The notes under the pieces: model-generated
What the model saw: the letters and a program-made list of their open reading frames with translations, nothing else
Databases searched by the model: none
What the model was told of the DNA's origin: nothing
Part shown: positions 6,062 through 55,958 of the stretch, one piece after another
Layout of the letters: the number at the start of each line of letters is the position of its first letter
Numbering within the stretch: position 1 is the stretch's first letter
Source: an archaeon
Lineage (GTDB): Archaea > Nanobdellota > Nanobdellia > Pacearchaeales > GW2011-AR1
DNA: 64,000 bases
Assembly (NCBI GenBank): GCA_018651605.1
Contig: JABIDS010000003.1
Span: 26,342 to 90,341, forward strand
Direction: 5' to 3'
Position numbers and translations under genes: made by a program

Positions 6062-6889
6062 ATGAAAAAAAGAGAATCCCCTTCACAAAAAAGATCACAT
6101 GCTAAGCTTCCGAAGGGAGTACTTAGAGGGAGGGTGACTTGTAAGGGAACCGTAGGTTCCATACGATCACAAACAACCATATTCATAATCCTAACAATCC
6201 TAATAATCATCATCATAGCTACACTCTTCATTCTAAAGCCAACCAAACAATCAACACCTCAACAAATTCAACCATTACAATCATCAATACAATCTTGCAT
6301 AGAAGAAATCTCCAAACAAGCAATATTTCACATAAGCGAAAGAGGAGGTTACTACAATCTTCCAGATACAACTCTCGAAAACACAACCCCCTACTATCTT
6401 TACAACGACCAAAACCTCATACCAACTAAAGAAAAAATTCAAAGAGAAATCACACTTTACATACAAGACAACCTACCTAAGTGCATATTCATAGCAACAG
6501 AATTTTCAGATTTCAAAATAACTCAACAACAACCTAGAGCAACAACAGAAATAAAACCAAACAATATTGAAATAAATATAATCTATCCATTATCAATAAC
6601 AAAAGAAGAAAAAACTTACCAACTAGAAAATTTCAAAACAAACATTCCAATAAGACTAGGAACAATCTACAATTCAATTGAACAAATCATACAAGAACAA
6701 ATCAAAGACCCAACAGCACTAGACCCTCACCACATATATCAAGTATCAAATGAAAACAATCTCCAAACAAAAATGCTAGGATTCACTCAAGACTCAGTAA
6801 TATTCATCATCACAGACAAAAAAACAATAAACCAAAACTACACATTTATCTTTGCAAATAAATACATTCCAAAAGAAATTGAAATATAA
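6062..6889 (+). CDS. Class III signal peptide (pilin-like) protein with a palindromic element in its leader
   Basis: IRS|QTTIFIILTILIII; IQSCIE...ERGGYY; ends FANKY like its paralogs. Confidence 0.8.
   Translation: MKKRESPSQKRSHAKLPKGVLRGRVTCKGTVGSIRSQTTIFIILTILIIIIIATLFILKPTKQSTPQQIQPLQSSIQSCIEEISKQAIFHISERGGYYNLPDTTLENTTPYYLYNDQNLIPTKEKIQREITLYIQDNLPKCIFIATEFSDFKITQQQPRATTEIKPNNIEINIIYPLSITKEEKTYQLENFKTNIPIRLGTIYNSIEQIIQEQIKDPTALDPHHIYQVSNENNLQTKMLGFTQDSVIFIITDKKTINQNYTFIFANKYIPKEIEI
6098..6166 (+). repeat. In-frame palindromic element, copy 1 (encodes HAKLPKGVLRGRVTC...)
   Basis: CTTCC-GAA-GGGAG and GGAACC-GTA-GGTTCC hairpins; core GGTGACTTGT...TACGA also at 29421, 51717 and 55181. Confidence 0.8.
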
Positions 6890-29393: not shown

Positions 29394-30047
29394 ATGAAAC
29401 CCCTCAATAAAAAACATACACATGATAAGCTTTCGAAGAAAGTACTTAGAGGGAGGGTGACTTGTCAATCTAAAAGGAGGATACATCTAATGAACCTTGG
29501 TTCCTGGGATACCCTACGAAAAGCCCAACAAGAAATACTAGGCTTCGTCCTAATAGTAGTAATCGTCAGCATAATCGGTGTAATCTTCTTAGTTTTAACA
29601 ATGGGAAGAGCTCCTTCAACAGCTTATAACAGCGTAGAAATATCAAACCTATTAGAATCATCAATGCATTACACAACAGATTGTGCAGTCAACTACGTTC
29701 CACAATACAAAGACGGACAAGATTTAATAAAATCCTGCTACAACGAACAAATAGGAAATTATCTAAACTGTTTAGATGAAAGAAATGTCTGCGATGCATT
29801 AAAAACAACAATGCAAAACCTAATCCAACAAACCTTAGACGTCCATGAAGACTCTCCAAATAAAGCCTTCAAATTTAACATTTATTTCAGCCCAACAAAC
29901 GAAGAAGAACCAAATCTACCAATACTAGACATAGACCAAGGACTATTTCAAAACTGCACCTCAAGAACAGGCGGAAGTCATCTAATTGATGCAACATTCA
30001 TAAACTCCGGAACAATCCATGTAGAACTCCAAGTTTGCAAATCATAA
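29394..30047 (+). CDS. Class III signal peptide (pilin-like) protein with a palindromic element in its leader
   Basis: RKA|QQEILGFVLIVVIV; leader contains HDKLSKKVLRGRVTC. Confidence 0.8.
   Translation: MKPLNKKHTHDKLSKKVLRGRVTCQSKRRIHLMNLGSWDTLRKAQQEILGFVLIVVIVSIIGVIFLVLTMGRAPSTAYNSVEISNLLESSMHYTTDCAVNYVPQYKDGQDLIKSCYNEQIGNYLNCLDERNVCDALKTTMQNLIQQTLDVHEDSPNKAFKFNIYFSPTNEEEPNLPILDIDQGLFQNCTSRTGGSHLIDATFINSGTIHVELQVCKS
29421..29519 (+). repeat. In-frame palindromic element, copy 2
   Basis: CATGATAAGCTTTCGAAGAAAGTACTTAGAGGGAGGGTGACTTGT matches the 6098 copy with compensatory stem changes; ends TACGA. Confidence 0.8.
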
Positions 30048-44381: not shown

Positions 44382-44455
44382 TGGGGCTACCCAGATTTGA
44401 ACTGGGATCGCCAACTCCCAAAGCTGGAAGGATAACCAGGTTACCCCATAGCCCC
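44382..44455 (-). tRNA. tRNA-Pro(UGG)
   Basis: Reverse complement GGGGCTATGGGGTAACCTGG...CCAGC-TTTGGGA-GTTGG...GTTCAAATC...TAGCCCCA folds as a cloverleaf; CCA not encoded. Confidence 0.93.
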
Positions 44456-51620: not shown

Positions 51621-51716
51621 AAAAACCAATTCCCAAAAGCTTTTAAACCCTAATTCTAATTTAATAATATAACTACGTTAACCTAACATCACCAAAAAAT
51701 CAAATAGATTTTTTGA

Positions 51717-51811
51717 ATCCTAAAACGCTTTGCGTTTTAGTGGATTTTAACAAAGTTAAAATCGCAAATTCAGGGGGTGACTTGTTAGGGGGACGGAGTC
51801 CCCATACGAAC
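51717..51811 (+). promoter_or_regulatory. Three-hairpin leader element directly before rpl40e
   Basis: Homologous over about 95 nt to 55181..55277, with compensatory changes. Confidence 0.7.
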
Positions 51812-51976
51812 ATGGCAACAAAATTACCAGCAGCACAAGCAAGATTATACAAAGATATGTTCGTCTGCCAACACTGCAAAACAAAAACACGAGCAAATCC
51901 ACGAAAAATCATAGAAGGAAAAATCAGATGTAGAAAGTGTCTCAAAAAAGCATTCAGACCAATTAGAAAGAAATAA
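51812..51976 (+). CDS. rpl40e: 50S ribosomal protein L40e
   Basis: MATKLPAAQARL...VCQHC...RCRKC...FRPIRKK; start at 51812 rather than 51713. Confidence 0.9.
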   Translation: MATKLPAAQARLYKDMFVCQHCKTKTRANPRKIIEGKIRCRKCLKKAFRPIRKK

Positions 51977-52057
51977 TTCTCAATTACTAACAATTCTCAA
52001 CAAACATTTAAAAGCTCAAAAAACTTCTACTAATCAAAGAGGCCACCCAAACTAAAA

Positions 52058-53521
52058 ATGTCATTTTACATATACGATATAACATTCCTAGTAATATTCA
52101 CAGCATTAGTAATCCACTTCCTCTACAAAAGAAGAACCAAATTAGAAAAAGAAGGAATCATGTATCTTTATAGAACACAAGTCGGAGTCAAATTCATCGA
52201 CTACGTAGGAACAAAATACAAAAAAACAATAAAATTCTTAGGATTCTTAGGAGTAATCTCAGGCTATTTCCTAATGGTAGCAATGATGTATTTCCTAGGA
52301 AGATTAATCTACATTTATTTATTTGTCCCAGACATTGTAAGAGCAATTAAAATTCCTCCATTAATGCCCCTAGTTCCATACCTCCCAGAAGTTTTTAAAA
52401 TAGATTTCCTACCAAGTTTTTATTTCACTTATTGGATAATCGCAATAGCAGTTATTGCAGTCTTTCATGAATTCGCACATGGAATAGTTGCAAGAGCTTA
52501 CGGAATAAAAGTAAGGACAACAGGCTTCGGATTCCTAGGCCCATTCCTAGCAGCATTCGTAGAACCAGACGAAAAACAAATGGAATCAAAATCAAGATAC
52601 CAACAAATCGCAGTCCTTTCAGCAGGAACATTCACAAACCTCATCCTAGCAATCCTATTCTTCCTATTACTCGCATTATTTTTCATAGTAACTTTCGTAC
52701 CAGCAGGAGCAATGTTCAATGTCTACGCATCTCAACCAGTAGAAATAAATTCAATAACAAACATCGGAGGAACACCTATAGCAGATCCTACAACAGGAAA
52801 CATAATAGACATAATAGACAAAAACAATTTATCAAACAATTTAATCCTAGGCTCAAATGGAAACACATTAGAACTAACCAAAATAACCGCCAACAACAAA
52901 TCATACTACATGGAAATGGAAATTTTAAAAAATCAACTAATTCAAGACACAGACTACGTCTTCCTATATCTCGACACATCCGCAATAAAAACAGGATTAA
53001 AAGGCGCAATAATAGAGATAGATAATAAAAAAATAAACACTCATGATGACCTATCAAGAGTATTAGAACAATACAATCCAGGAGATACTGTTCAAATAAA
53101 AACAAGAGTAAAAAAAGAAATTTTCAATTATGAAATAGAATTAATAGAGCACCCTGAAGATTCAACAAAACCAATGATTGGAATAGGATACAATTTACAA
53201 AAAGGTGGCATGACAACCACAATCACAGAATTCTTTAATTTCTTTAGAGAACCTGCAACAGATTATCAACCAAGATTTAATGTTGACCTAGTTGAATTCA
53301 TATACGACCTTATCTGGTGGCTAGCCCTAATAAATCTCAGCGTTGCATTAGTTAATATGTGGCCAGTCGCAATCTTCGACGGAGGTCGAATGTTCATGCT
53401 AACAATCTGGGCAATCACAGGAAGCGAGAAATTCGGAGAACTTGCATTCAAAACAATGACTTACTTAATTTTAGGTTCCTTATTACTCCTAATGTTTGGC
53501 TGGGTTATTGCGATTTTTTAA
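52058..53521 (+). CDS. Site-2 protease (M50) with PDZ-like domain
   Basis: HEFAH, AFVEPDE, AGTFTN, NMWPVAIFDGG. Confidence 0.92.
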   Translation: MSFYIYDITFLVIFTALVIHFLYKRRTKLEKEGIMYLYRTQVGVKFIDYVGTKYKKTIKFLGFLGVISGYFLMVAMMYFLGRLIYIYLFVPDIVRAIKIPPLMPLVPYLPEVFKIDFLPSFYFTYWIIAIAVIAVFHEFAHGIVARAYGIKVRTTGFGFLGPFLAAFVEPDEKQMESKSRYQQIAVLSAGTFTNLILAILFFLLLALFFIVTFVPAGAMFNVYASQPVEINSITNIGGTPIADPTTGNIIDIIDKNNLSNNLILGSNGNTLELTKITANNKSYYMEMEILKNQLIQDTDYVFLYLDTSAIKTGLKGAIIEIDNKKINTHDDLSRVLEQYNPGDTVQIKTRVKKEIFNYEIELIEHPEDSTKPMIGIGYNLQKGGMTTTITEFFNFFREPATDYQPRFNVDLVEFIYDLIWWLALINLSVALVNMWPVAIFDGGRMFMLTIWAITGSEKFGELAFKTMTYLILGSLLLLMFGWVIAIF

Positions 53522-53555
53522 AAGGATTTTTAAATTAATAATAACTTCTAAAACC

Positions 53556-54533
53556 ATGCTATCTAAAAAACTTCAAGAAACCCTAAAAAAACAACACTAT
53601 GTTTTAATTGGAAAACATTCAGCAGTTCAAATATGCAGATGGACAAAAAATTCATTAAGAGAACAAGGACACTGTTATAAACAACAATTCTATGGAATAA
53701 AATCCCACCTATGTTGTCAAATGTCTCCCAGCGTAGGTTTCTGCCAAAACAGATGCTTACATTGTTGGAGGGCAATAGAATTAACAGAAGGCAACAAAAT
53801 GTCAGAAAAACAAACAGACAATCCAGAAACAATTATTCAAGGTTGCATTCAAGCACAACAAAAACTTCTCAACGGATTTAAAGGAAACCCAAAAACAAAT
53901 CTAACAAAATTCAAACAAGCACAAGAACCAGAAAACTTCGCAATCTCCCTAACAGGAGAACCAACACTCTATCCAAAACTAGGAGAACTAATCCAACAAC
54001 TAAGGGAAAAAGGAAAATCAACATTCATAGTAACTAACGGACTTCAACCAGAAACACTAAAAAAACTTCAAAAAAACAAACAACTCCCAACTCAACTTTA
54101 TGTCTCACTAAACACTCCAAACGAAAAAATGTTCAAAAAATGGCACAAATCAACAATAAAAGATGCATGGAAAAAACTAAACCAAACTCTCAACCTTTTC
54201 CCAAAACTAAAAACAAGAAAAGTAATAAGAATGACATTAGTAAAAAACGCAAACACAAAACCAGAACACATTGAACAATATTCAGAACTAATAAAAAAAG
54301 CTCAACCAGATTTCATCGAAGTCAAAGGTTTCATGTCTGTAGGATTCTCAAGAAACCGAAAAGGAATGGGTTACGACGCAATGCCAACCCACGAAGAAAT
54401 AAGAGACTATGCAGAAAGAATAGCAATATCCCTAAAAAATAATTACAAAATCTTAGATGAACACGAACGCTCAAGAGTAATTCTTATAGGAAAAGATAAA
54501 AGTAAGATGAAAATTAAAAAATCAGAAATTTAA
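53556..54533 (+). CDS. taw1: 4-demethylwyosine synthase (radical SAM, TYW1/Taw1)
   Basis: HSAVQICRWT, CYKQQFYGI, CQNRCLHCWR, AISLTGEPTLYP. Confidence 0.95.
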   Translation: MLSKKLQETLKKQHYVLIGKHSAVQICRWTKNSLREQGHCYKQQFYGIKSHLCCQMSPSVGFCQNRCLHCWRAIELTEGNKMSEKQTDNPETIIQGCIQAQQKLLNGFKGNPKTNLTKFKQAQEPENFAISLTGEPTLYPKLGELIQQLREKGKSTFIVTNGLQPETLKKLQKNKQLPTQLYVSLNTPNEKMFKKWHKSTIKDAWKKLNQTLNLFPKLKTRKVIRMTLVKNANTKPEHIEQYSELIKKAQPDFIEVKGFMSVGFSRNRKGMGYDAMPTHEEIRDYAERIAISLKNNYKILDEHERSRVILIGKDKSKMKIKKSEI

Positions 54534-54754
54534 TCCGCTTTCTCAACCCTATAAGAACAACTAATCTTCCCACCCCCAACATAACAAGGCCCCTTATCAA
54601 TAGTAGCAATACCTTGAATATTTCCATTAATATCTCTCAAATATGCTTCACTAGGAATTTCTGCCCCCTCGTCAAAATCAAGATTATTCAATTCACCAAA
54701 TTCAAGACCCTTTAATTCTTCAGTAAGCAAAACTATTTCACCTAAGGCCATCAC
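54530..54754 (-). CDS. Hypothetical protein
   Basis: Short ORF coupled to the upstream CARF-like gene. Confidence 0.5.
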   Translation of the reverse strand: MMALGEIVLLTEELKGLEFGELNNLDFDEGAEIPSEAYLRDINGNIQGIATIDKGPCYVGGGKISCSYRVEKAD

Positions 54755-55098
54755 ATAAACACCAATCCATCTTTTGTTAAAGCAGTAAACCTAATCCCTA
54801 CAGGCAACGACAACAAAGCAGAAATCAAAGCCATATGTTCCTTACCACTTCCAGATGCAATCGACAAACCAACTTCAGTCCCATTAATCTTTCCCTTCAA
54901 TTTCCCCATTATCTCATCCTTTAATTCAATCAATGAACCACCACTAGTCTCAACAAATTCAAAATTCTTTTCAACAGTAAATTGCTTAGCAAAATTATCC
55001 CCAACCAAAATTATATTATCCCAATCATTATTCTTAATAACTCCAGCAACCTGTCCCCAACTTCCTTTTCCTGAACTAACCAATGCAACTAATTCCAT
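54751..55098 (-). CDS. Small Rossmann-fold, possibly CARF-like protein
   Basis: LVALVSSGKG...GLSIASGSGKEHMALISALL resembles the CARF beta-strand-SGG-K-helix motif. Confidence 0.55.
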   Translation of the reverse strand: MELVALVSSGKGSWGQVAGVIKNNDWDNIILVGDNFAKQFTVEKNFEFVETSGGSLIELKDEIMGKLKGKINGTEVGLSIASGSGKEHMALISALLSLPVGIRFTALTKDGLVFM

Positions 55099-55180
55099 AA
55101 TCTAAAAACTCAAGTTAAATTTATAAGCTTATATGTGGTAGAATAAATATAAAAAGAGTATAAATTAAATTCACTTCATC

Positions 55181-55277
55181 ATCCTAAAATGCATGTATTT
55201 TAGTAAGAGATTTTAATAATATTAAAATCGCAAAATTAGGAAGGTGACTTGTTAGGAAACCTAGGTTTCATACGAAA
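55181..55277 (+). promoter_or_regulatory. Three-hairpin leader element directly before the HTH gene
   Basis: Homologous to 51717..51811. Confidence 0.7.
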
Positions 55278-55739
55278 ATGAAAGACATACCACTATCAGA
55301 AATAACATTAAGAAAATACGAAAAACCATCAAACTTAGAGGAACGAGAACTCATAAGAAAAATCTGTCTCTCACTCGGACTTCTTCAATTAGCAGATTCA
55401 AGAGATGTAATCGTCGACATACTCCTCACATTAACACAAGCAAACAAAAACAAACAATCACTCAGCTCAGAAGAAATAAAAACAAAAGTAGAAGAATCAA
55501 GAAAAAAATACAGCCTAGAAACAAAAGGACTTGCAGAGTCAAACATCCGAAGACAACTAAAAAGATTAAGAGATGCAATGCTAATAGAAAAAACAAATAA
55601 TAAATATCATCTAACAGAAAACTTACCATTAAGCGAAATTTTCACAAACAATATAGAACGATTCATCATCCCTCAAATCATCGAGAGAATAAAAGAATAT
55701 TTAGATGAACTCAATAAGGATAAAACCCCTCAACAATAA
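55278..55739 (+). CDS. Winged-HTH protein
   Basis: EITLRKYEKP...CLSLGLL...SNIRRQLKRLRDAMLIEK. Confidence 0.7.
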   Translation: MKDIPLSEITLRKYEKPSNLEERELIRKICLSLGLLQLADSRDVIVDILLTLTQANKNKQSLSSEEIKTKVEESRKKYSLETKGLAESNIRRQLKRLRDAMLIEKTNNKYHLTENLPLSEIFTNNIERFIIPQIIERIKEYLDELNKDKTPQQ

Positions 55740-55772
55740 AACATAAATATAAAATAAAAAAAATAAAACAAA

Positions 55773-55958
55773 CTATCTTTTCTTTTTCTTTTTAGCTGCT
55801 TTCTTCTTCGCTGGTTTTTTCTTAGCAGCCTTCTTTTTAGCTGGTTTTTTCTTAGCAACTTTAGCAAGTTTCTTCTTCAATCCATCAATCTCCTTAGTTT
55901 GTTTCTTAAGAGATTTTAATCGAATATCACATTGCTTTACAGTTTTTGGTTTTTTCAT
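55773..55958 (-). CDS. Small Lys/Ala-rich histone-H1-like basic protein
   Basis: (AKKKPAKKKA)2 repeats; strong SD GGAGGT just upstream of the ATG. Confidence 0.7.
   Translation of the reverse strand: MKKPKTVKQCDIRLKSLKKQTKEIDGLKKKLAKVAKKKPAKKKAAKKKPAKKKAAKKKKKR

Follow-up and report, generated by a model that had tools for sequence, protein, structure and literature searches.

Introduction

Rickettsia palindromic elements (RPEs), which are about 150 base pairs (bp) long, are in-frame insertions in unrelated housekeeping genes, where they are translated as an extra peptide (Ogata et al. 2000, as cited in excerpts of PMC10969869). In the Thermoproteales, families of introns common to different transfer RNAs (tRNAs) have been taken as intron transposition (Fujishima et al. 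2010, as cited in excerpts of PMC4090602). Here, we describe a hairpin cassette with features of both, starting from two copies, A and B, in a 64,000-nucleotide (nt) stretch of DNA from an archaeon of the order Pacearchaeales (assembly GCA_018651605.1, contig JABIDS010000003.1, positions 26,342–90,341 of the forward strand), termed the window. The genome to which the window belongs (G000) is a 1.0-Mb assembly of 24 contigs that is 84% complete. Comparison among genomes shows that, in one DPANN order, the cassette has spread both inside single genomes and from genome to genome, and that in the genus of G000 it lies mostly 0–2 nt before the ATG of unrelated genes, many of which serve translation or information processing. 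The family is real, widespread and apparently unpublished; a full-text literature search, which returned mostly listings and abstracts, gave no description of a start-codon cassette in DPANN archaea. On balance, and with moderate confidence, we regard copies A and B as composite copies of a hairpin cassette that is small and non-autonomous, spreads by copy and paste and is comparable to RPEs or mobile tRNA introns.

With RPEs, as the cited excerpts portray them, the cassette shares the character of a short, multi-copy, palindrome-bearing repeat that has no gene of its own and is found in frame in housekeeping genes as well as in non-coding places; it differs in being three times shorter (about 50 nt) and archaeal, in the placement of most genus copies at start codons in one orientation, in its putative three-codon open reading frame (ORF) and in the residence of most copies of other genera in tRNA introns. 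Like the Thermoproteales introns, as far as the excerpts describe them, it places a very similar intron sequence in tRNA genes of many isoacceptors, implying gain after speciation; unlike them, only the 5′ portion of the intron is held in common, the position is always the canonical 37/38, and the same sequence recurs inverted as an mRNA leader and in ORFs. The cassette also resembles REP/REPIN sequences (RAYT) and the MITE/PATE elements of IS200/IS605, being a small, covarying hairpin between conserved single-stranded flanks, present in many non-coding copies, but it lacks terminal inverted repeats, regular target duplication and an association with Y1 transposases. REPs, moreover, are mostly found downstream of genes and not at start codons. 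Finally, in translational coupling via short upstream ORFs, and in the engineered ‘bicistronic design’, a short ORF with its own ribosome-binding tract ends before the real start, and in phage T4 genes 25 and 38 a split ribosome-binding site is bridged by a hairpin between a Shine–Dalgarno-like tract and a distant start. Unlike these coupled-translation systems, the cassette is a natural repeat at dozens of archaeal genes.

Copies in the window and its genome

An initial annotation of the window had described two copies of a three-hairpin element of about 95 nt, each ending just before a start codon. The two look-alike stretches (51717–51811 and 55181–55277) are indeed present as placed: their hairpins align, pairing is kept through double changes, and both end in ATACGA-NN-ATG, where NN is AC in copy A and AA in copy B. 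The parts of the two copies are listed below.

51694–51701 with 51707–51714, plus strand: copy A, upstream hairpin (stem 0), AAAAAATC, loop AAATA, GATTTTTT; predicted in minimum-free-energy and centroid folds
51720–51728 with 51732–51740, plus strand: copy A, hairpin 1 (add-on module), CTAAAACGC ttt GCGTTTTAG
51743–51751 with 51755–51763, plus strand: copy A, hairpin 2 (slot of the variable 5′ hairpin of the family), GATTTTAAC aaa GTTAAAATC
51764–51788, plus strand: copy A, conserved single-stranded core, a purine-rich tract (..CAGGGG) and then the putative mini-ORF
51776–51785, plus strand: copy A, core word GGTGACTTGT
51777–51788, plus strand: copy A, putative mini-ORF, GTG at 51777, ACT TGT, TAG at 51786–51788
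51789–51794 with 51798–51803, plus strand: copy A, hairpin 3 (the covarying hairpin of the family), GGGGAC gga GTCCCC
51804–51809, plus strand: copy A, sharp 3′ end ATACGA, followed by AC and, at 51812, the ATG of rpl40e, the gene directly after the copy
55184–55192 with 55195–55203, plus strand: copy B, stem 1
55209–55217 with 55221–55229, plus strand: copy B, stem 2
55230–55280 (region), plus strand: copy B, core, with GGTGACTTGT at 55243–55252 and a putative mini-ORF from GTG at 55244 to TAG at 55253–55255
55256–55261 with 55264–55269, plus strand: copy B, stem 3 (hairpin 55256–55269)
55270–55275, plus strand: copy B, ATACGA, followed by AA and, at 55278, the ATG of a gene for a protein of 153 amino acids

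The three stems described for copy A stand, but that description was incomplete in that a fourth hairpin, stem 0, lies further upstream (51694–51714); at the same position, other copies in G000 carry AAAAATTTC...GAAATTTTT. Between hairpins 2 and 3, copy A reads GGTGACTTGTTAG. In copy B, stems 1 and 3 leave a loop of only 2 nt, and hence their top pair probably does not form. The protein encoded behind copy B has weak, sub-threshold Pfam matches only; its orthologue in genome G058 (locus L080) also carries the element.

Searches with the core word and an nhmmer profile gave 15 matches at 14 loci in G000. Hairpins 1 and 2 are present in nine of the 15 copies, and five of these nine, including copy A, have a further hairpin upstream. 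The other six carry a different 5′ module (type II), consisting of CACATGATAAG, the hairpin CTTCC gaa GGAAG and TAATTAGAGGGAA. Judging by names read from translations, the carrier genes of G000 are rpl40e, the 153-amino-acid gene, aIF1A, SMC, and glycosyltransferase-like, permease-like and pilin-like genes.

RNAalifold, applied to eight same-type copies from G000, predicted three hairpins with 24 pairs, ten of which show double-sided compensatory change; hairpin 1 is among them, with alignment columns 38–46 pairing with 51–59 and double-sided changes at three pairs. The fold of copy A is much more stable than that of its shuffles (z −4.39; none of 200 shuffles equals it). Copy B gives a weak signal (z −1.85; 11 of 200 shuffles equal it), and hairpin 1 is absent from its minimum-energy fold. 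The reverse strands of copies A and B fold as well as the forward strands.

The conserved core

The extent of the conserved unit was read from the genus, where 96 matches from 32 genomes were fetched and the element was located in 94. Over these 94 copies, conservation begins 13 nt before the core word, with CTATCTTAGGAAA, and stops at ATACGA; the core word GGTGACTTGT is almost invariant. The core of the family is about 50 nt long and comprises CTATCTTAGGARR, then G-NTG-ACT-TGT-TAR, a covarying hairpin of 6–8 bp and (A/T)TACGA. The 5′ side is modular and holds one or more variable AT-rich hairpins, including stems 1 and 2 of the initial annotation. In other genomes, a small covarying hairpin of copy-specific sequence stands directly before CTATCTTAGGAAA; of the parts of copies A and B, only the 3′ part recurs there, and hairpin 1 was found in none of the other-genome copies read. 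Since conservation is limited to the 3′ part, the unit is not the 95-nt, three-hairpin RNA first described: stem 3 and its flanks alone form the core of the family, stem 2 takes the place of the variable 5′ hairpin and, by the same comparison, stem 1 is an extra of the copies belonging to G000.

Two sets of AT-rich hairpins were noted alongside. The hairpin AAAAAATCAAATAGATTTTTT (51694–51714 of the window) recurs identically in loci L003 and L005 (genomes G009 and G019), before unrelated hairpins upstream of genes, and rpl40e of G024 has a leader of other AT-rich hairpins. Such modules may constitute a second repeat system.

The covariance model built for the core has 53 positions and six pairs. 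When 110 matches were aligned to it, 98.2% of the 612 cells of stem 3 were paired, against 36–75% in controls with slid partners; the alignment was fitted to the model, which somewhat favours structure. Double-sided changes occur at four of the six pairs (87 cells) and none of 500 shuffles reaches the observed score, so stem 3 covaries. Covariation extends to the base below the stem, where G stands opposite A in 66 copies, A–T in 29, G–C in two and T–A in two. Pairing-breaking variants of a lower helix around hairpin 3 (UUGU/ACGA) are, by reading, about as many as pairing-keeping ones. The arms of stem 3 are near-pure Watson–Crick on both strands (595 Watson–Crick, six G–U and seven A–C among the 612 cells), a pattern to be expected if the element serves in either orientation, or as DNA. 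The wobble pairs were also considered as a guide to the folding strand, and six G–U against seven A–C give no signal.

The initial annotation had regarded GGTGA as resembling a Shine–Dalgarno sequence. It is not conserved as one: the second base is G, T or A, and never C, and GTTGA or GATGA replaces it in 35 of 102 copies, so that it was rejected as the Shine–Dalgarno sequence of the gene. The variable second base of GNTGA reads better as part of an NTG start codon (GTG in 66 copies, TTG in 18, ATG in 17, ATA in one and CTG in none). Codon 4 of the reading frame that would follow is TAG or TAA in 86 of the 102 copies. Among the 16 copies with a non-stop codon 4, five run in frame into the gene (L103, L128, L146, C18 and C12:32473) and two (L091 and C24) stop as ATGA overlapping the ATG of the gene, both classes being small in number. 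Read in this way, the core has a purine-rich tract followed by a three-codon ORF (start-Thr-Cys-stop), and the stop stands at the base of the hairpin; the ATG of the gene follows 6–8 nt past hairpin 3. A conserved start and stop of a short ORF just upstream of a gene, as in upstream-ORF leaders, is therefore present in sequence. ACT-TGT is fixed at the nucleotide level, and so more than coding is conserved. An alternative frame from the TTG inside ACTTGT was discarded, as 20 of 51 TTG-bearing copies enter the ORF out of frame and there is no consistent relation to the gene.

Some copies (L060, L063, L064, L073, L131, L133, L140 and L021) have an outer stem of 9–11 bp around the whole core, which is copy-specific with its pairing kept and ends in a T-run right before a TATA-like box. 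Copies of this kind may double as terminators of the upstream gene.

Comparison with known RNA classes gave no assignment. At the gathering threshold, Rfam matched one tRNA gene in the whole window (44382–44455, minus strand) and nothing for either copy; at E up to 10, both copies gave sub-threshold scores only (10–23 bits against thresholds of 40–80). A C/D box small RNA was rejected on the grounds that CUGA is missing from the consensus and that GGTGA/GTTGA is unfit as a C box, a K-turn leader because the bases beside the two GA dinucleotides cannot pair, a CRISPR-like or Cas6-type repeat because the copies are solitary or in irregular tandems and not in arrays, and hammerhead and other ribozymes because the consensus has none of their motifs or Rfam gives no match.

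Position at gene starts

Counting from the final A of ATACGA, an ATG is found between −1 and +2 in 48 of the 94 genus copies, against about 8% expected from base frequencies; placement is thus far from random with respect to start codons. In 52 genus copies, an ATG opening an ORF of 50 codons or more lies within 22 nt, the longer distances being those of tandem stubs; one of the 52 (L149) is in fact a tRNA gene seen from its reverse strand. Wherever it stands at a gene start, the element is in the sense orientation and ends at the ATG. When 48 downstream proteins were compared with Pfam, 18 were counted as ribosomal proteins or as translation, transcription or protein-targeting factors (four L11; two each of S8e, Spt5 and SRP54; one each of S12, S6e, L10e, eIF1A, EF1B, eRF1, FttA and a tRNA-binding protein); the remainder include three SMC/Rad50-like proteins, two TrmB and MinD.

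In 399 long ORFs of G000, TATA-like hexamers form a sharp peak at −29 to −27 relative to the ATG, with 251 hits over the three positions against about 5–12 elsewhere, and Shine–Dalgarno-like words rise modestly at −20 to −10. The only 16S match in G000 ends at model position 828, at the end of a contig, and does not extend to the anti-Shine–Dalgarno sequence. We infer that the genes of G000 are predominantly leaderless; given that background, an element 0–2 nt before an ATG would sit at the usual transcription start and must become the 5′ untranslated region (UTR). In carrier genes, TATA-like hexamers are weakly enriched 53–69 nt before the core, at approximately the distance of a promoter upstream of the 5′ hairpin, which is only suggestive of a promoter there; in the same genes, no TATA box was seen at leaderless distance from the mini-ORF. 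The suggestion in the initial annotation of an undescribed structured leader RNA holds to this limited extent: Rfam has no family for it, and the element would form the 5′ UTR of leaderless genes.

How such a leader might work can be proposed from its parts. Before the ATG of a leaderless gene, the cassette would become the whole 5′ UTR and would supply a purine-rich, Shine–Dalgarno-like tract, a mini-ORF of three codons whose stop lies at the hairpin base, and a spacer of 6–8 nt to the ATG. Ribosomes would load on the cassette and either re-initiate at the ATG of the gene or pass to it, and loading of this kind would explain the tolerance of essential genes to insertion. From this arrangement we infer a translational role for the cassette.

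Copies inside reading frames

Seven genus copies lie in open frames of real genes and are read through without a stop. In leucyl-tRNA synthetase (LeuRS) of three species, the same 42-nt in-frame insert, antisense and read as RKETQVSLTSQPSL, occupies a variable loop. The insert is missing from 27 further LeuRS genes of the genus, two of which resemble one carrier more closely than the carriers resemble one another. Five copies are counted outside LeuRS and four are named, namely those in a second aminoacyl-tRNA synthetase, a HIT protein and a lysine-rich protein (antisense) and in a methyltransferase (sense). Each orientation of the element has one open frame and every ORF copy uses that frame, so read-through is favoured and splicing disfavoured; around the LeuRS insert, the one ORF copy checked, no bulge–helix–bulge was seen by eye, no dedicated search for this motif being made. 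In-frame, read-through insertion in unrelated protein genes, as in RPEs, is accordingly a property of the cassette.

Two more copies in the window, both with the different 5′ module, are also associated with reading frames.

6097–6166, plus strand: third window copy, type II, with a 5′ module of CACATGCTAAG, hairpin CTTCC gaa GGGAG and TACTTAGAGGGAG; covariance model score 66.6 bits
6133–6142, 6146–6160 and 6161–6166, plus strand: core, hairpin and ATACGA, respectively, of the third window copy
29419–29519, plus strand: fourth window copy, type II variant b, core 29456–29465; covariance model score 20.9 bits

The third copy is read through in frame in a pilin-like ORF from 6062, in which frame f2 is open from MKKRESP.. 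through ..VTCKGTVGSIRSQ to a hydrophobic helix. The fourth contains an inserted second unit, AAAAGGAGGATACATCTA, followed by the hairpin GAACC tt GGTTC, ends in CTACGA (29514–29519), and is either internal to a pilin-like ORF or its leader (ATG 29394 or 29490). In three or four pilin-like genes of G000, a type II copy stands in frame between an MKxxKK start and an IR(A/S)/Q site; on our reading, these copies would lie within the removable class III signal peptide. The pilin-like genes themselves (window 6062–6300 and 29394–29600; contig C12 of G000 at 102.9k and 109.0k) have unusually long pre-sequences with the element in frame, and a hydrophobic helix after ..IR[AS]Q or ..RKAQ; at 109 kb there are two tandem units.

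A third cassette subfamily, with the core GGTTGCATCTA or GGATACATCTA and the end ..TGGAT(T/A)..., is represented by L196, L197 and L210 (genomes G012, G064 and G045) and by 29466–29513 of the window. It is found at L11 starts and is also nested in type II copies of G000.

Copies in tRNA introns

Beyond the genus there are 50 matches in 17 genomes, and ARAGORN calls place 28 of them in introns of tRNA genes, all antisense to the tRNA; this number is a lower bound, as a few more copies are tRNA-linked by eye. ARAGORN isotypes are unreliable for intron-bearing genes and the gene spans alone were used. In the sense of the tRNA, the intron starts 0–1 nt after position 37/38 with TCGTAT, continues with the hairpin and then with CTAACAAGTCACC. 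The position is thus that of tRNA introns, and the element is only a part of each intron. The introns outside the genus span many isoacceptors. Within the genus there are two tRNA-intron copies, antisense in the tRNA-Gly(CCC) introns of G005 and G046. A tRNA(CAU) intron of G136 holds the element, by eye, in the opposite orientation. An apparent diverged antisense relative, ..GTAAGG..CCTTGACCGTCAACCTCCCTT.., was seen in a tRNA-Ser(GCT) intron (L217 516–653; L222 2031–2168).

Could the intron be the original home of the element? In this alternative, which we consider improbable, a mobile tRNA-intron module at the 5′ edge of the intron would move via RNA ends, by mis-ligation at cleaved splice sites or by template switching at RNA 5′ ends with subsequent reverse transcription, and the copies at gene starts would be a secondary invasion of leaderless mRNA 5′ ends. 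The prevalence of intron copies outside the genus, in one orientation and with TCGTAT at the splice position, is as such a module would have it, and the same end abuts the ATG at 0–2 nt, the expected start of leaderless transcripts. Of the two ends, one is sharp and one variable, as in copies primed from the 3′ end, and intron families common to different tRNAs are on record in the Thermoproteales (excerpts of PMC4090602). The orientation with respect to the transcript is, however, opposite in introns and leaders, so that one simple RNA mechanism does not cover both, and the G136 intron holds the other orientation. The same review, in the excerpts, describes intron gain as supposedly occurring at the level of DNA (PMC4090602).

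The distribution of reverse transcriptases bears on this alternative in both directions. They are encoded in 33 of 49 genus genomes and are commoner where the element is present (26 of 33 genomes with it against seven of 16 without; Fisher p = 0.023, a value that overstates the association because the genomes are related and incomplete). The association is a lead only. The reverse transcriptase of G000, moreover, may be a specialised retroelement: on contig C3, a gene with RVT_1 and HTH_40 domains (L272 2707–4152, plus strand) adjoins an RT-16 RNA (Rfam RF03019; 4245–4427, minus strand). A similar pair of reverse transcriptase and RT-16 lies on contig C27 of G007 (L273 2830–2971, minus strand), just upstream of an Spt5–L11 cluster with two copies of the element. 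Many reverse transcriptase matches come in two adjacent pieces (profile positions 8–109 and 106–204) in separate frames or ORFs, for example at G001:C66, G007:C27, G014:C193 and G056:C43, which suggests a conserved split or frameshifted gene.

Distribution across genomes

The element is by no means confined to two copies. Besides the 15 in G000, the covariance model detected the core in 33 of the 49 genus genomes, with 1–14 matches each. In the order, 21 of the 151 sampled genomes contain it; they represent 12 of 84 genera as well as four families, and their scores reach those of G000. The genomes are incomplete assemblies, and absences among them are soft.

Orthologous genes are found with and without it. 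In rpl40e, the element is present in G000 and in none of three other genomes read; two of the three also read ..AACATG, like the G000 flank after ATACGA, which places the junction right after ATACGA. Upstream of L11, where the region was read in 30 of the 46 genomes with the gene, the element stands before the ATG in seven, in three sequence subfamilies and once nested, and the other starts are empty. In many of the empty genomes the ATG overlaps the stop of the upstream gene, and in others a TATA box is present at leaderless distance. Tandem and nested copies leave repeated ..CC-(A/T)TACGA stubs. Multiple copies, patchy distribution, presence and absence at orthologues, and nested and tandem copies all favour the mobile element put forward in the initial annotation. 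Its proposed targeting of translation starts holds in part: they are not the sole target, as tRNA introns dominate in other genera and copies also lie inside reading frames.

Some carrier genes are common to different species, namely SMC in G000 and G014, aIF1A in G000 and G017, and the gene behind copy B in G000 and G058. In the three species with the LeuRS insert, the element is identical at 44 of 44 positions and the 150-nt flanks are 47–83% identical; in the tRNA-Ser(UGA) introns of three genomes, the element is identical at 38–42 of 44 positions and the remainder of the intron is 32–66% identical.

A host regulatory leader, in which a shared cis-acting RNA, through one factor or the ribosome, co-regulates genes of translation and information processing and the copies in ORFs and introns are accidental, would account for several of these features. 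The downstream genes are rich in ribosomal proteins and in translation and transcription factors, the same genes carry the element across species (SMC, aIF1A and the gene behind copy B; L11 in seven genomes), and its sequence is conserved well beyond its neighbours. Yet at least 28 tRNA introns contain the same core in antisense, and it also lies in frame within LeuRS, a further aminoacyl-tRNA synthetase, a methyltransferase and a HIT protein; at the L11 start, one subfamily takes the place of another; 16 of 49 genus genomes are without the element, and the orthologues of carrier genes do without it in most genomes. Carriers further comprise pilin-like, permease and glycosyltransferase genes, and highly expressed leaderless promoters could simply be preferred or tolerated as targets. 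We therefore regard a host leader as unlikely.

Mode of spread

A mobile cassette is thus the reading that we prefer, and several observations weigh against it. No mobilising gene is linked to the element. The Y1 (IS200/IS605-type) transposase, PF01797, is absent from G000 as assembled (84% complete), and its presence in 20 of 49 genus genomes shows no association with the element (15 of 33 genomes with it against five of 16 without; p = 0.37); within the genus, a Y1 gene is never adjacent to a copy and never close to one on the same contig. There are no terminal inverted repeats, the 5′ end (CTATCTTAGGAAA) not being the reverse complement of ..CATACGA. Target duplications of at least 11 nt accompany three of the 48 start-adjacent copies, all at L11, against 1.6% in the control. 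Copies are more conserved than a dead insertion should be, since the likeness extends to the element and not to its flanks; this needs either selection or a likeness kept by re-insertion or gene conversion. No near-identical pair of genomes differing by the insertion alone was found, so movement is deduced and not caught in the act. With regard to the proposed role in translation, the purine tract starts 7 nt before the NTG, as against about −14 to −11 for the Shine–Dalgarno-like motifs of G000, and the ATG of the gene behind the cassette has no Shine–Dalgarno sequence of its own.

The candidates considered in this context were set aside. Y1 transposase and TnpB, the zinc-ribbon domain of which occurs in six of 49 genus genomes, were rejected as mobilisers for want of association or adjacency. 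In the three L11 duplications, the first 12–14 nt of the gene are repeated beyond the insertion, one mismatch being allowed; target duplication was rejected as a general feature at three of 48 copies. The close relatives G064 and G012 were compared as a fresh filled and empty pair and failed as one, since both have the element at one locus and the G012 assembly lacks the other locus.

Y1 enzymes also enter into an alternative at the level of DNA. The element might be a single-stranded DNA hairpin or a protein-binding site for replication, recombination or an HUH enzyme, in the manner of REP and RAYT, with transcription incidental. Conserved flanks around a covarying stem would suit such a site, as would arms that are Watson–Crick on both strands with G–U no commoner than A–C, the occurrence of both orientations with respect to transcription, and the Y1 transposases in the genus. 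These transposases, however, show neither association with the element nor adjacency to it, and the strong orientation rule at gene starts, together with the start and stop pattern of the mini-ORF, would be unexpected without translational relevance. We consider a site of this kind very unlikely.

For the preferred mobile cassette, a more specific form can be envisaged, although we think it doubtful: a mobile unit whose landing sites are set by RNA ends (the 5′ splice site and the leaderless mRNA start), perhaps copied by reverse transcriptase, and which then serves as a portable translation-initiation module. If the reading as a mobile cassette holds, a tiny selfish cassette would rewrite the translation start of dozens of essential genes in small symbiotic archaea, from leaderless to leadered with a mini-ORF, providing a natural experiment on the poorly understood initiation of archaeal translation. 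The same sequence would join mobile tRNA introns and RPE-like intragenic repeats, which have so far been treated apart, and would offer a concrete sequence with which to seek the mechanism of archaeal intron gain. The annotation of start codons and of tRNA introns in these genomes would likewise be affected.

Sequencing depth in the window

Four public DNA runs from one study were compared with the window. They gave short, low-depth contigs, with joints whose sides of 21–41 nt have 85% likeness; these joints most likely stem from repeats or other organisms. At 55757–55947, depth rises in all four runs from about 5 to 145–480. The rise covers a Lys/Ala-rich ORF on the minus strand (55773–55958) and is presumably due to low-complexity sequence common to many organisms.

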